This document shows positions 3,806-36,666 of a stretch of 36,666 bases of DNA, in pieces. Position 1 is the first letter of the stretch. The number at the start of each line of letters is the position of its first letter. The stretch is from a virus. The notes under the pieces are model-generated. The model ran no database searches. It saw only the letters and a program-made list of their open reading frames with translations, and was not told the origin of the DNA. Position numbers and translations under genes: made by a program. The stretch covers positions 1 through 36,666 of IMG/VR virus record IMGVR_UViG_3300005077_000057; one strand, written 5' to 3'.

Positions 3806-3834
3806 TTGACAAGCTGGTTGAAATGTGATATGAT
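3806..3834 (+). promoter_or_regulatory. Consensus extended -10 sigma70 promoter on the plus strand.
   Basis: TTGACA (3806-3811), a 17-nt spacer, then TGaTATGAT (3826-3834). It points away from all other genes toward the small ORF at 3864. Confidence 0.6.
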
Positions 3835-27250: not shown

Positions 27251-27832
27251 TTAGGCTTTGTTTATTCTGGCTTCGGCTATTTTTATGTAATCGGCTTCTC
27301 TTTCAATACCGATAAAGTTTCTTTTAAGATTTACACACGCTACACCGGTGCTTCCACTTCCCATAAACGGGTCTAATACTGTTGCTCCTTCACGGCTTAC
27401 AAGTTTTACTAGGTATTCCATTAGTGCGATGGGTTTTACCGTAGGATGAAAATTAGATTGTGGTTTATTTATACATTCTTTCCAATTTGGCTGCTCACAT
27501 TCACACACACCATTACCTCTATCGTATTTTGATTTATTACACAATAAACATATTGGATTAGTATTACCTCTAACAGTTAATTCATTTGCTTCTCCGCCAA
27601 CTTTCTCCAACCCCTCACACCCTCTATTCCTTTCACTCTTACTAGCTTTGGGTATGTATGCGAATCTCTTTGGTGCGGTCTTTTCTATTTCTTGGATGTA
27701 GTTTGTGATGACACGATTCGCAGAGCCAAACAATTTCAAAAGGTTTTTCGTAGTCGGGGTGGTGTCTATGCTGTTCTCTTCTAATTCTTGTAGTGATGTT
27801 AAGCAGTCATTAAGTTTTATTGTCGTCGTCAT
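27251..27832 (-). CDS. N6/N4 DNA-methyltransferase-like protein with no detectable catalytic (D/N/S)PP(Y/F) motif.
   Basis: C-terminal half HPTVKPIALMEYLVKLVS..GATVLDPFMGSGSTGVACVNLKRNFIGIE is the classic beta-class AdoMet-binding region. The N-terminus NDCLTSLQELEENSID is followed by TTPTT where DPPY is expected. There is also a Cys-rich insert (CLLCN...CECEQPNWKEC). Confidence 0.6.
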   Translation of the reverse strand: MTTTIKLNDCLTSLQELEENSIDTTPTTKNLLKLFGSANRVITNYIQEIEKTAPKRFAYIPKASKSERNRGCEGLEKVGGEANELTVRGNTNPICLLCNKSKYDRGNGVCECEQPNWKECINKPQSNFHPTVKPIALMEYLVKLVSREGATVLDPFMGSGSTGVACVNLKRNFIGIEREADYIKIAEARINKA

Positions 27833-28591: not shown

Positions 28592-28972
28592 TTATTTTTC
28601 TTCTAATATTTTTGGGCTGTCTAATACGATTCTGCTGATATGCTCTGCTAATCTCTCCCAAGCAGAGTTTATTTCATCTTGGTTGGTAAATCTCTTAAAG
28701 GCAAGCTCTTTTAATTCGTTAGTCAGTATGTGGGATAGTTCGTGATAAACACTCTGTCTTATTGATTCTATTCCAAAGCGTTTTATCTCTTGTTGGGCGG
28801 TCTTTTCATATACGGTTATAATAGCCTGTAAGTATTCGCCGTCAGCTCCAACCGTCATTAAGGTTTCTTTGTCGTCTTCGGCTTCTATTTTCAGATTTAG
28901 GGTCCAATGTTCAAGTCGCATTCGTTTCTGCGCCTCTTTTATGAATTGTCGCACTTCATTTCGTAAGGTCAT
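28592..28972 (-). CDS. Putative HExxH zinc metallopeptidase-like protein.
   Basis: 126 aa with YHELSHIL (HExxH) in a helical context. Confidence 0.45.
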   Translation of the reverse strand: MTLRNEVRQFIKEAQKRMRLEHWTLNLKIEAEDDKETLMTVGADGEYLQAIITVYEKTAQQEIKRFGIESIRQSVYHELSHILTNELKELAFKRFTNQDEINSAWERLAEHISRIVLDSPKILEEK

Positions 28973-29105
28973 AAATCTTAAAATAAATCTGTATATGGCA
29001 TCTTTTGCAACGCCATTGCTTGTCTAATTCTCGTTTGCATCTCGGGCATTTGATATAATTCAGAGCTTCCTTTGGATGTTTTATTGTTATCGGGTATTCC
29101 TCCAT
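28956..29105 (-). CDS. Small zinc-ribbon protein (49 aa).
   Basis: Hand-translated MEEYPITIKHPKEALNYIKCPRCKRELDKQWRCKRCHIQIYFKIYDLTK (CxxC...CxxC). It starts just after the U-tract that ends the candidate ncRNA. Confidence 0.35.
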   Translation of the reverse strand: MEEYPITIKHPKEALNYIKCPRCKRELDKQWRCKRCHIQIYFKIYDLTK

Positions 29106-29110
29106 AACGC

Positions 29111-29496
29111 AAAAAAGACCGAGTTATTTTCGGCGACCTGATTTTTTTCCCCCACATTTATTCATACACAAGCCAATGAATGAGTAAGTGCTATCGGGTA
29201 GGGTATCTTGCCAACCAACCGAAGTTGATTGCCATGCTTGTTGATACCCGGCCCCATAGAACTTACCACAGTTCAGCCGAGAAGTCGCTGACAAAGCAAG
29301 CGTCTTGCGATAATCCCAGCTAAATTGTATTAACTTCACCCCCTATGAACAGAGGACAATCCCGCTGTAATGTAATTTGCTTACCACAATGAATACAGTT
29401 TTAGATAGCCATAGCCATCCAATCGTATGAACAAGTGGCGCAGGAACTTACTAAAATGACTTGTCCGGGTTGCACCCTGGTGAAAAGGAACGAACT
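29111..29496 (-). ncRNA. Candidate structured non-coding RNA of unknown class (about 385 nt).
   Basis: A perfect extended -10 promoter lies directly upstream and a U6 tract at the 3' end. There is a 69-nt extended hairpin (29191-29259) capped by a UUCG tetraloop, with a G-U pair that only works on the minus strand. Additional hairpins lie at 29273-29291, 29296-29308 and 29429-29466. The only ORF here (29124..29339) has a GTG start, no ribosome-binding site and an odd composition. Confidence 0.5.
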
Positions 29497-29502
29497 GTAT
29501 AT

Positions 29503-29531
29503 ATTATACCACATTTAAGAAACTTTGTCAA
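29503..29531 (-). promoter_or_regulatory. Consensus extended -10 sigma70 promoter driving the candidate ncRNA.
   Basis: Minus strand reads TTGACA (29531-29526), a 17-nt spacer, then TGgTATAAT (29511-29503). The -35 element sits in the last codons of the NinG-like gene. Confidence 0.65.
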
Positions 29532-29874
29532 GTAATTTTTCGTATTTTTCTGTTATGCTTTTGTAATAACCGACACTTGGTTTTACATAATCAGATTTTT
29601 TCGCCAAAAGTGCGTTGCTCCATTTTACCCCCCGTTTTGCTATGATTATTGAAGCAAAAAAGGCCACCCTGTTAGAGTGAAACCCCAAATGACACTTTGA
29701 ACAGACCGCAACCATATTATTTTCCTCAAAGCGGAGCGCTGATGAGCTTGCTTTTGTGTGAAAATGGTGGTGGCAAGATGCTGGTTGTCCACAGATTTCG
29801 CACAACGGATGTAGTTTTATCAGATATTTTTGAAACGCTTTATCAGCTTTTGTCCGGTATAAGGCGATTGCCAT
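29515..29874 (-). CDS. NinG/Rap-like protein (putative structure-specific endonuclease / resolvase).
   Basis: KADKAFQKYLIKLHPLCEICG...CHHHFHTKASSSALRFEENNMVAVCSKCH matches the NinG-family arrangement (ADxxFSxYIR, CxxCG, HH, LRF, CxxCH). Confidence 0.5.
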   Translation of the reverse strand: MAIALYRTKADKAFQKYLIKLHPLCEICGQPASCHHHFHTKASSSALRFEENNMVAVCSKCHLGFHSNRVAFFASIIIAKRGVKWSNALLAKKSDYVKPSVGYYKSITEKYEKLLDKVS

Positions 29875-31862: not shown

Positions 31863-32450
31863 TTAATAAATTATTATTTGTTTAGTTTGCTTTCCCCAGT
31901 TAATAGCATCTTCGTAGCTTTCAAAATAGATGTCAAAGCGGTTATCGTATTTTATGTTCAGGCGGTCTTCACAAGTGTAAATTATGCCGTCAATTTCTAC
32001 TTTTGTGCCAAAAGGATATTTTCTTGGGCAAGCTATTGCACCAACATACACATTTTTACCGGATGCCATTATATTCGGTGTAGCGTCTGTTTGTCCGACT
32101 TCCGCATTATATCCGGTAATTGTAGCGGTAATTGTGGTATGGTTGGGCAATTCTTTGGCGCTGACTTCCGGCGCAATTATACGCTTAATGGTCGGGCATT
32201 CGTAAAATGAGCATTGGTAGGTGGTAATTGAGACAATTTGCGTGGCGATAAGAATAACAGTTGCTACCATTATGCCAAAAGCTATTAAGCAAGCGAGTGG
32301 AATAATATCGGTGTTGCGTTTCCACGCTTTCCATTTTCTTGGATTTCGCCAAGTTATCCGGCCGTGTTTATTCCAGTTCTTTATCCGGAGCTTCAAGTCC
32401 GATAAAGCGGTTTTGAGTCCAAACTTACAAGCCAAGTTTAGGAACTTCAT
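31863..32450 (-). CDS. Membrane-anchored 3D-domain (RlpA/MltA-like double-psi beta-barrel) cell-wall protein.
   Basis: One TM segment (IIPLACLIAFGIMVATVILIA). C-terminal ATITGYNAEVGQTDATPNIMASGKNVYVGAIACPRKYPFGTKVEIDGIIYTCEDRLN...FDIYFESYEDAINWG fits the 3D-domain pattern. Confidence 0.75.
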   Translation of the reverse strand: MKFLNLACKFGLKTALSDLKLRIKNWNKHGRITWRNPRKWKAWKRNTDIIPLACLIAFGIMVATVILIATQIVSITTYQCSFYECPTIKRIIAPEVSAKELPNHTTITATITGYNAEVGQTDATPNIMASGKNVYVGAIACPRKYPFGTKVEIDGIIYTCEDRLNIKYDNRFDIYFESYEDAINWGKQTKQIIIY

Positions 32451-32478
32451 ATTGTTTGTGTTAGTGAGTTATACTTAT

Positions 32479-32507
32479 ATTATACCACAATCAGCTCGTT
32501 TTGTCAA
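32479..32507 (-). promoter_or_regulatory. Consensus extended -10 sigma70 promoter upstream of the 3D-domain gene.
   Basis: Minus strand reads TTGACA (32507-32502), a 17-nt spacer, then TGgTATAAT (32487-32479). It shares the 14-mer TGTGGTATAATATA with the ncRNA promoter. Confidence 0.65.
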
Positions 32508-32655
32508 TAGGTATGCCTGTGGATAATTTTCTGCGGTTTTCTTCCCTTTGTTTAGCCATTTTCTTAAAGTATTCTACGCCATACTTCTCTTTGGTGGCAT
32601 TTCCCCCTCTTCTGCCGAACTCTTGCATTAGTTTTTTGATGTCTTCTTGTTTCAT
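32491..32655 (-). CDS. Small basic protein (54 aa).
   Basis: Start taken at ATG 32655 (MKQEDIKKLMQEFGRRGGNATKEKYGVEYFKKMAKQ...), 4 nt after the upstream stop. The GG..T..KYG..YF pattern is loosely KGG-repeat-like. Confidence 0.4.
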   Translation of the reverse strand: MKQEDIKKLMQEFGRRGGNATKEKYGVEYFKKMAKQREENRRKLSTGIPIDKTS

Positions 32656-32659
32656 ATTA

Positions 32660-32911
32660 TTAAGTAAATATTTCTTCACATTCTTTTATTTTTTCTAATA
32701 TCTTTGCCTCAACTTGACGAACACGCTCTCTGGTCACGCCAAACTCTTTTCCAACTTCTGCCAAACTATGAGTAATACCATCTTTTAAGCCAAAACGCAT
32801 TTCTAATACTGCCCTTTCTCGGATAGACAACAAACTTATGGCGGTTTCTATTTTTGTTTTTTTTTCTTCGCTAAAAGAAATACTATTCCAAATCTTATCT
32901 ATGTTTTTCAT
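32660..32911 (-). CDS. Stand-alone sigma70 region-4 (4.1-4.2) domain protein.
   Basis: [49 protein letters not shown] aligns by eye almost position-for-position with the primary-sigma region 4 consensus (L..RE..VL.MRFGL......TLEEVG..F.VTRERIRQIEAKALRKLR). Only 83 aa, with no regions 1-3. Confidence 0.75.
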
Positions 32912-35301: not shown

Positions 35302-35691
35302 TTATTCACCGTATTCTTTTACAATTCGCTCACACAAGGCAAGCAGTTTTGCTCTTGCCTCCGCTTCATCCTTTGAAAGATATTCTTGGGCTTCATCAAT
35401 ATCTTCTTCGTCTTCTGGTTCTTCACCATAATTTTCCCAGTTTTCATAACAATCTTCCAAATCTTGAAGTGTATTATGAAACCTACAATAACTCATATTC
35501 ATATTATTTACATTAAATAAGTAATTGAGTTCACCGCTTCCACCAATGTTTCGGGTTTTCATTACTTGTGTATAGTCCGAAAGTTGAAAGGTTGTAGTGA
35601 ACTCTGATATTACTATATCATATTGCGAGCAGGTTGTCAATAGTGAACTGGGGATAACTTTTACAGCAGTTTTGCTTGATTTGGTTGCCAC
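35302..35691 (-). CDS. Hypothetical acidic protein; start uncertain.
   Basis: 129-aa track ORF. A promoter-like element at 35612-35640 lies inside it, so the ATG at 35562 (MKTRNIGGSGE..., 86 aa) is an alternative start. The C-terminus is very acidic (EEPEDEEDIDEAQE). Confidence 0.45.
   Translation of the reverse strand: MATKSSKTAVKVIPSSLLTTCSQYDIVISEFTTTFQLSDYTQVMKTRNIGGSGELNYLFNVNNMNMSYCRFHNTLQDLEDCYENWENYGEEPEDEEDIDEAQEYLSKDEAEARAKLLALCERIVKEYGE
35612..35640 (-). promoter_or_regulatory. Candidate extended -10 sigma70 promoter.
   Basis: Minus strand reads TTGACA (35640-35635), a 17-nt spacer, then TGaTATAGT (35620-35612). Confidence 0.4.
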
Positions 35692-36313: not shown

Positions 36314-36666
36314 TTAAATAGTTATTTTCTCATAAAGAGATTTGTTAGGTTTGTTCCAATTTTTTGAGGCCCAAGTAATCAGCCGCTTCTTTACATCAAA
36401 CACCCGTTGCATTTGCCAGAGTTCTTTTTTGCCGTTGTGATTCTTCTGTGTCCAGTAATTGAGAAAGGCATTTATCAGTTCATCATCATACTGTTCCTTA
36501 AATGGAATTATCAACTCTTCAAGGGATGGCGAGCTTGCCTCGCCCTCTTTCTCTTTATCTTTATCTTTATCTATATCTATATCTATATCTTTGTTATCGG
36601 GTATAGATAGGGTATGTATAGGGTATATCTTTTTTAGTATTTTGGCTGGAATTAGCGATTTTTCCT
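36314..36666 (-). CDS. Replisome organizer, C-terminal part (continuation of 1..409 across the junction).
   Basis: The track ORF 36314..36514 begins at a TTG that is in frame with the upstream reading frame: ...DIDIDIDKDKDKEKEGEASSPSLEELIIPFKEQYDDELINAFLNYWTQKNHNGKKELWQMQRVFDVKKRLITWASKNW... No stop occurs between 36514 and the window end. Confidence 0.6.
   Translation of the reverse strand, partial: EKSLIPAKILKKIYPIHTLSIPDNKDIDIDIDKDKDKEKEGEASSPSLEELIIPFKEQYDDELINAFLNYWTQKNHNGKKELWQMQRVFDVKKRLITWASKNWNKPNKSLYEKITI
36568..36666. repeat. Terminal overlap, copy 2 of 2 (identical to 1..99).
   Basis: Exact 99-nt identity with the window start. Confidence 0.95.

Follow-up and report, generated by a model that had tools for sequence, protein, structure and literature searches.

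A candidate late-operon leader with a conserved mini-ORF and structured RNA in a circular phage genome

Layout of the locus

The DNA analyzed here is a 36,666-nt viral sequence, the IMG/VR record IMGVR_UViG_3300005077_000057, which we refer to as the window. Its bases 1-99 are an exact direct repeat of bases 36568-36666, so the contig is circular and is a complete genome of 36,567 bp. A short tandem repeat of the TATCTATATC type is found at the window start. Nearly the whole window is transcribed from the minus strand. The closest TerL (large terminase) of a cultured phage is less than 45% identical to that of the window, and TerL-guided scans of metagenome and genome collections, although they retrieved many relatives, identified no host.

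The largest gap in minus-strand coding, contig ends aside, lies between convincing ORFs at 29106-29514. A preliminary description of the locus had singled out this gap correctly but gave its size as 540 bp; the true value is 409 bp. The region is also, as described, richer in G/C than its neighbors, with a G+C content of 0.43-0.45 versus 0.31-0.39 nearby. Upstream of the gap, all on the minus strand, are a C5-methylase-sized ORF, several small ORFs and a NinG/HNH-like gene, which is the final gene of the early or middle block. Downstream, also on the minus strand, follow a zinc-ribbon ORF, small ORFs, a TerS-like gene, an N6/N4 methylase gene, TerL and a portal-sized ORF. The gap thus sits between the early block and the packaging and structural genes, and therefore marks the entry to the late genes. 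The coordinates of its features are collected in Table 1.

Table 1. Coordinates of the features in and around the late-gene entry, and of other promoter sites in the window
Feature	Coordinates	Strand	Remarks
NinG/HNH-like gene, upstream of the gap, 119 aa	29515..29874	-	NinG 1.5e-6; HNH 5.5e-4
Sigma70 promoter TTGACA-N17-TGgTATAAT	29503..29531	-	12/12 match; TG ahead of the -10
Late-leader promoter, -35 and -10	29531..29526 (-35); 29508..29503 (-10)	-	
5' part of leader	29325..29496	-	Small local hairpins, e.g., 29466..29429 and 29422..29401
53-nt hairpin, outer stem UUUAGCUGGGA/UCUCGGCUGAA	29272..29324	-	Stable on the minus strand alone
Rod hairpin of ~90 nt, UUCG tetraloop	29180..29269	-	z -5.75; -41.1 kcal/mol
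Mini-ORF, ATG..TAA, MNKCGGKKSGRRK, 13 aa	29124..29165	-	Relatives in four loci
Intrinsic-terminator-like hairpin GCCGA-AAAUAAC-UCGGU, then C and U6	29111..29134	-	Weak
Terminator stem of 5 bp with 7-nt loop	29134..29118	-	Followed by CTTTTTTG
First late gene, 49-aa CxxC...CxxC zinc-ribbon protein	28956..29105	-	ATG 12 nt past the terminator stem and 5 nt past the T-run
Second perfect promoter, TTGACA-N17-TGTGGTATAAT	32479-32507	-	26 nt ahead of ORF 32450..31863
One-mismatch promoter sites	35612-35640, 554-582, 3806-3834		

The first late gene encodes a zinc-ribbon protein for which a protein database search returned no candidates; its profile matched only generic zinc ribbons in the PDB and PHROGs. 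Farther downstream, the N6/N4 DNA methylase gene (27251-27832, minus strand) is inserted between the TerS-like gene and TerL and overlaps the TerS-like ORF by 23 nt; in relatives, TerS directly abuts TerL. None of the 37 gene starts in the window is preceded by a Shine-Dalgarno motif, and A/T-rich sequence is found there instead. Despite this absence, the promoters of this phage are canonical sigma70 sites.

Promoters

The perfect extended -10 promoter reported in the preliminary description is present on the minus strand, where all 12 consensus positions of sigma70 are matched. It overlaps the stop codon and the last codons of the NinG/HNH-like gene, and transcription is predicted to start near A29496. 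A terminator-like hairpin (7 bp plus T6; 29664-29680, minus strand) lies within the coding sequence of the NinG/HNH-like gene, about 130 nt upstream of this promoter. Perfect sigma70 sites occur twice in the window, and sites with no more than one mismatch occur five times compared to 0.44 expected. The stretch 32507..32476, at the second perfect site, is 75% identical to the late-leader promoter over 32 nt. No promoter matching at least 10 of the 12 positions was found between the terminator and the late genes. When the promoter consensus was tried as a marker of the family, the search pattern retrieved unrelated strong promoters only.

Just upstream of the second perfect promoter is an 83-aa ORF for a stand-alone sigma70 region-4 domain (32660-32911, minus strand; PF04545, E value of 4.7e-14), a candidate phage transcription regulator. 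The DnaA-box-like sequence TTATCCACA is found at 32518-32526 and 35649-35657 on the minus strand and at 620-628 on the plus strand. It lies 9-11 nt upstream of the -35 element in two early promoters of the window. In two related loci (L099 and L102), it precedes the late-leader promoter by about 10 nt, but the late-leader promoter of the window lacks it.

Folding of the leader RNA

The 388-nt minus-strand transcript has a minimum free energy of -121.2 kcal/mol and folds better than its shuffled controls (z = -3.59); the plus strand scores z = -2.20. Since both stable hairpins are also better on the minus strand, the assignment of this strand as the RNA strand, originally argued from a single G-U pair, is borne out. 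The 69-nt hairpin with a UUCG tetraloop that had been seen by eye (29259..29191) is real and forms the core of a rod of about 90 nt (29269..29180), which extends it through GGUAAGU/ACUUAC(U)C. On the plus strand, the rod reaches z = -4.19 and -35.3 kcal/mol, so that the minus strand is better by 5.8 kcal/mol. The 3' end of the rod lies 15 nt ahead of the AUG of a mini-ORF. The second hairpin (29272..29324) is also strand dependent: its minus-strand fold has an energy of -20.7 kcal/mol (z = -2.86) and its plus-strand fold one of -12.4 kcal/mol (z = -0.96).

The 5' portion of about 170 nt (about 29330-29496) folds no better than shuffled sequences, with z values of -0.28 and -0.42. The hairpin previously noted at 29429-29466 is present, but the part of the leader that holds it is not significantly structured. 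The 9-mer UGUGGUAAG does occur twice in the region, as had been observed (29388..29380 and 29270..29262, minus strand), and there are three copies in the whole window compared to 0.17 expected. By eye it matches a DnaA box at only six of nine positions and was rejected as one. The hairpins of the window are supported by thermodynamics and strand asymmetry; covariation was found only in the leader of a sister lineage (see below).

Known RNA families and homologues

The RNA had resisted assignment to known classes by eye, and systematic searches of the window agree. Rfam 15 (4,227 models at gathering thresholds) had no match anywhere in the window, and ARAGORN found neither a tRNA nor a tmRNA in it. 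A permissive Rfam search of 28950-29650 returned chance matches only, such as sR55 (14.6 bits versus a threshold of 35) and alpha_tmRNA (13.7 bits versus a threshold of 50), the latter located outside the RNA. Across nine related loci, Rfam recognized a single RNA, the tRNA of L041.

Homologues of the window RNA were sought by blastn against 50,697 GenBank phages, by the exact pattern of the apical hairpin in IMG/VR, and by nhmmer and blastn over about 115 related loci. The GenBank phages contained no homologue, the pattern was absent from IMG/VR, and nothing in the related loci could be aligned to the window RNA. A conserved structured RNA family, for which the preliminary description had suggested a search for homologues, is therefore not supported.

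Related loci share a layout

Homologues of the window's TerL are abundant in metagenomes, the closest being 81-82% identical. Five loci with TerL identities of 74-82% (L006, L039, L041, L099 and L106) each have a gap of 590-920 nt in the same place. A sixth, L112, was located through its zinc-ribbon gene and has the same module with an unrelated TerL. All six share a near-consensus promoter, a structured leader of 190-520 nt and a mini-ORF of 10-15 codons. The module is rare: it was found in seven loci, window included, and, apart from L112, only those relatives whose TerL is at least about 74% identical carry it. The combination of an unrelated terminase with the same leader module in L112 indicates that the module is mosaic.

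Individual elements recur as well. Promoters equivalent to that of the window, usually with an extended -10, were found in L041, L106, L112, L099 and L102, and zinc-ribbon homologues are the first gene past the leader in L006, L099, L106 and L112. In L112, a 1-nt frameshift near 2498 (within 2440-2600) interrupts this gene; it could be programmed, result from misassembly or mark a pseudogene. Each related leader contains long rod-like helices, and the leaders fold far better than shuffled sequences in L106 (z = -8.6), L041 (-4.7), L112 (-4.4), L039 (-3.65) and L099 (-2.8).

The leader of L041 carries a tRNA-Met gene, detected by both ARAGORN and Rfam. This tRNA-Met (CAT; 584-660) has a 1:72 mismatch and A11 and, as judged by eye from the Rfam alignment, is like a bacterial initiator tRNA. 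LAGLIDADG homing-endonuclease-type ORFs interrupt the structural gene blocks of relatives as insertions (L039, 10728-11962; L107, 6556-7059).

The leaders of L006, L039 and L099 can be aligned with one another. Their shared 26-bp helix, 94.7% paired, encloses a domain of roughly 85 nt ahead of the mini-ORF, and several of its G-U pairs are conserved on the sense strand. Changes on both sides of a pair number eight in these three sequences, versus zero or one in slid controls. This pattern is suggestive of a long leader helix kept by compensatory changes in one sister lineage, as judged from three sequences. A covariance model of the sister-lineage helix did not match the window rod. Its sole match was the rod of L112, and this one, being matched on both strands, is a generic long-hairpin match. 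In L006 (3400-3573) and L039 (5092-5277), a further conserved stretch of about 170 nt lies between the terminator after the mini-ORF and the first late gene; within this stretch are a TCTCTTGACA motif and a long hairpin, GACGGCAA...TTGCCGTC.

A mini-ORF under coding selection

Between the rod and the terminator, the window contains a 13-codon mini-ORF, in whose product Lys and Arg account for 6 of 13 residues. The corresponding products are MNKCGKKKGGKKK in L041, MPCGKKTKKRGKRK in L006, MGCGKKTKKRGKRK in L039 and MGCGKKTKKAGKRK in L099, the last three sharing the pattern M[PG]CGKKTKK[RA]GKRK. Same-position ORFs in L106 (MLTGYKLITG) and L112 (MGKLQLQHNFLIAVF) encode unrelated peptides. A search of IMG/VR with nucleotide patterns of the mini-ORF yielded nothing new.

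Among the mini-ORFs of L006, L039 and L099, only two codons are replaced, and every one of the seven isolated single-base differences is in the third position of its codon, a TAA/TAG exchange included. The chance of this is (1/3)^7, or about 5e-4. The window and L041 differ by two Arg-to-Lys changes, each of which alters all three bases of the codon. The third-position bias and the whole-codon Arg-to-Lys swaps show that the mini-ORF is under selection as a coding sequence. Indirectly, these substitution patterns suggest that it is translated. The lack of a Shine-Dalgarno motif in front of it is no objection, since none of this phage's genes has one. The predicted accessibility of its start region is neither especially high nor especially low, with no switch evident, and no convincing alternative (antiterminator) helix turned up in the leader.

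The stop codon of the mini-ORF lies at a predicted terminator

The short stem followed by U6 that had been noted right before the next ATG is present, its stem ending 12 nt ahead of that ATG (29105). One of its five pairs is G-U, and terminator-like motifs are not enriched in this genome. Given the weak 5-bp stem and this lack of enrichment, termination here may be inefficient.

The stop codon of the mini-ORF (29126..29124) lies inside the predicted terminator loop. The same arrangement is found in L112, and in L006, L039, L099 and L106 the stop codon is either 0-1 nt before the terminator stem or overlaps the stem. L041 has a mini-ORF with no terminator after it. A terminator therefore overlaps or abuts the stop codon of the mini-ORF in 6/7 loci, window included. 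In dinucleotide shuffles of each leader, an ATG ORF of 9-30 codons ended inside an 18-nt window with a chance of 0.07-0.13 per locus; because the loci are partly related by descent, these values do not represent independent trials. The relation between stop codon and terminator persists among leaders that cannot be aligned, and also in a phage whose terminase is different; its retention argues for function. With no promoter of at least 10/12 past the terminator and only 12 nt to the ATG, the late genes must be reached by read-through.

Discussion

The locus contains a promoter, hairpins, a mini-ORF under coding selection and a terminator, and its layout recurs in relatives. With moderate confidence, we read it as a 5' leader, or attenuator, that acts in cis on the late operon of packaging and structural genes, and not as a new noncoding RNA standing on its own. 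Recurrence of the layout in six loci whose leaders are otherwise unalignable points to a late-operon leader that acts in cis. The leader unit abuts the first late gene and leaves no space for a further promoter between them, which speaks against a free-standing RNA, and a translated 13-codon ORF inside the region would make it not purely noncoding. The proposal of an unclassified phage RNA thus survives in part. There is a structured minus-strand unit that belongs to no known family, but the notion of a free-standing, purely noncoding RNA does not hold, given the conserved mini-ORF at its 3' end.

We propose that the host sigma70 RNA polymerase would start at the consensus promoter, near 29496, and would make about 170 nt of loosely folded RNA, followed by the hairpins 29324..29272 and 29269..29180. 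The 13-codon mini-ORF would be transcribed next, and then the weak terminator that holds its stop codon in the loop. Polymerases stopping at 29111-29117 would release an RNA of about 385 nt, the counterpart of the '6S' RNA of lambda PR'-tR', and those reading through would produce the late mRNA. A ribosome on the mini-ORF may cover the 5' arm and the loop of the terminator, so that the hairpin would be blocked and read-through favored. The long hairpins would set the stability of the RNA, its processing (for example, by RNase III) or ribosome access. Termination itself, its relief by translation and the roles of the hairpins are inferred. In E. coli, ribosomes almost fully suppress a terminator that lies a few base pairs past a gene being translated (PMC4824070).

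Several observations count against the attenuator reading. The terminator of the window is weak, the start region of the mini-ORF gives no sign of a switch, and no homologue of the window's own hairpins was found. In L041, the mini-ORF has no terminator, and L106 and L112 encode peptides that bear no relation to the basic one. The remaining five loci conserve the amino acid sequence of the peptide, which a purely regulatory ORF would not need.

The late leader of phage lambda consists of the PR' promoter, the 194-nt '6S' RNA and the tR' terminator and is subject to antitermination by Q; in lambda-type systems, the gene for the Q-family antiterminator is usually located immediately upstream. 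The locus described here is similar in having a constitutive sigma70 promoter directly ahead of the late genes, a terminator at most a few hundred nucleotides farther on, what would be a short terminated leader, late genes accessible only via read-through, and a nin-region gene upstream. It differs from the lambda leader in that no Q homologue was found, in that the leader is about twice as long and shows no sequence similarity, and in that it holds a mini-ORF, apparently translated, that ends in the terminator. Lambda-type leaders also have a Q-binding element and a sigma-dependent pause close to the promoter; where the initially transcribed region is AT-rich, -10-like hexamers are not diagnostic of them.

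Attenuation of pyrBI and pyrE in E. coli is coupled to the translation of a leader ORF. As in these attenuators and in the arrangement studied in PMC4824070, a short ORF here ends in or near an intrinsic terminator that precedes the putatively regulated genes. However, these genes form a phage late operon and not a biosynthetic one, neither obvious regulatory codons nor a UTP-sensitive pause tract are present, the ORF is preceded by a long structured region, and the peptide is a conserved basic sequence in 5/7 loci. By analogy, the locus is most like a lambda PR'-6S-tR' late leader combined with a leader-ORF attenuator of the pyrBI type.

Other leaders share particular features. In the lambda PL/N leader, a large hairpin that RNase III recognizes directly precedes the start codon of N. 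Both it and the leader described here are phage leaders with a strong promoter and a long imperfect hairpin immediately before a start codon; the ORF downstream has 13 codons here, in contrast to a regulator of about 100 aa, and no nut-like boxA or boxB was identified in our leader. Phages P4 (CI RNA) and P1/P7 (c4) have leader-embedded regulatory RNAs that make up the C4 family of Rfam. There too, the leader is structured and transcribed from a constitutive promoter, and its processing could yield a stable RNA ahead of a small ORF, the translation of which matters for the downstream genes; the leader of L041 contains a tRNA, a substrate of RNase P. The window differs from these systems in lacking an Rfam C4 match and in having repeats limited to the 9-mer present twice. 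Finally, HK022 put, EAR and conAn2 of pLS20 (PMC8191782) are also structured, promoter-proximal leader RNAs of long terminator-containing operons. Neither sequence nor structure matched any curated family here, and the hairpins vary between close relatives, unlike a conserved polymerase-binding element.

We regard it as unlikely that the locus produces a free-standing, trans-acting noncoding RNA of about 385 nt, the hairpins of which would act on a host or phage target as a decoy, sponge or processing product, with the mini-ORF being incidental or a second function. A strong promoter and a terminator do delimit a discrete unit, its folding is significant and strand dependent, no known family was matched, and the tRNA-Met in the L041 slot shows that stable RNAs can be expressed from there. 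However, a fixed target would predict conservation, whereas the RNA is without a sequence homologue even in phages with 74-82% identical TerL, where the leaders are entirely different. Its 5' 170 nt are unstructured, and the conserved features are the layout and the mini-ORF, not the RNA.

A late leader of the strictly lambda type, in which a Q- or N-kind antiterminator or a put-like RNA triggers read-through, translation of the mini-ORF is irrelevant and the terminated transcript has no function of its own, seems quite unlikely. None of the 30 early or small proteins matched a Q or N family, and the presence of a mini-ORF ending in or next to the terminator in 6/7 loci is left unexplained. 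This must be set against the good match to the PR'-6S-tR' geometry, with a constitutive consensus promoter before the late genes and then a terminator, and against the NinG-like nature of the upstream gene, which recalls the nin-Q region of lambda. The sigma70 region-4 protein (32911..32660) could also act on promoter-bound polymerase.

As a long shot, the leader may be a minimal peptide-RNA switch, or an abundant terminated RNA of about 385 nt may act in trans. The Lys/Arg-rich peptide of 13-14 residues (CG(G)KK..K/R) is reminiscent of the arginine-rich motifs found in lambda N and Tat. Such a basic peptide could bind the long bulged hairpin just upstream on the same transcript and control termination or translation. 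If either version were true, it would be an undescribed timing device of phages that combines a micro-peptide with a rod RNA evolving at a fast rate.

Very improbably, the inverted repeats are an element of the DNA itself, that is, a cos or pac packaging site or an origin. Lying between an HNH/NinG-like gene and the packaging genes, the site is placed much as in HNH-dependent cos phages such as the HK97-like ones, and the rod folds on the plus strand too (z = -4.19). However, G-U pairs make both hairpins clearly better as minus-strand RNA, and the helix of the sister lineage retains its G-U pairs on the sense strand. The element is bracketed by a promoter and a terminator, relatives with the same layout have no adjoining HNH gene, and the 99-bp terminal overlap reflects circular assembly and gives no end at this site.

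That the region is simply a protein-coding gene is scarcely credible: the frame 29339..29124 (ORF71; 71 aa, GTG start) is open and was annotated by a gene caller on this contig (P0121), but it has no Pfam or PHROG match, its only match among 5.8 billion proteins is itself, in keeping with the earlier view that it is not a conserved protein, it spans both stable hairpins, and relatives conserve no more of it than the last 13 codons, which there form a mini-ORF of their own with an ATG start, so that it was rejected as a full-length protein.

To our knowledge, how uncultured phages that rely entirely on the host sigma70 polymerase delay their late genes is mostly unknown. Read as a cis-acting leader of the late operon, the locus suggests a compact means of doing so, consisting of a consensus promoter, a leader that evolves fast yet folds strongly in every case, a micro-ORF and a terminator overlapping its stop codon, in a slot that can also house a tRNA gene. 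It also cautions that what looks by eye like a structured noncoding RNA can be an mRNA leader with a tiny gene. If the proposed mechanism is true, the locus would be a phage example of translation-coupled attenuation and would add a conserved basic micro-peptide of 13-14 aa that gene callers have missed.
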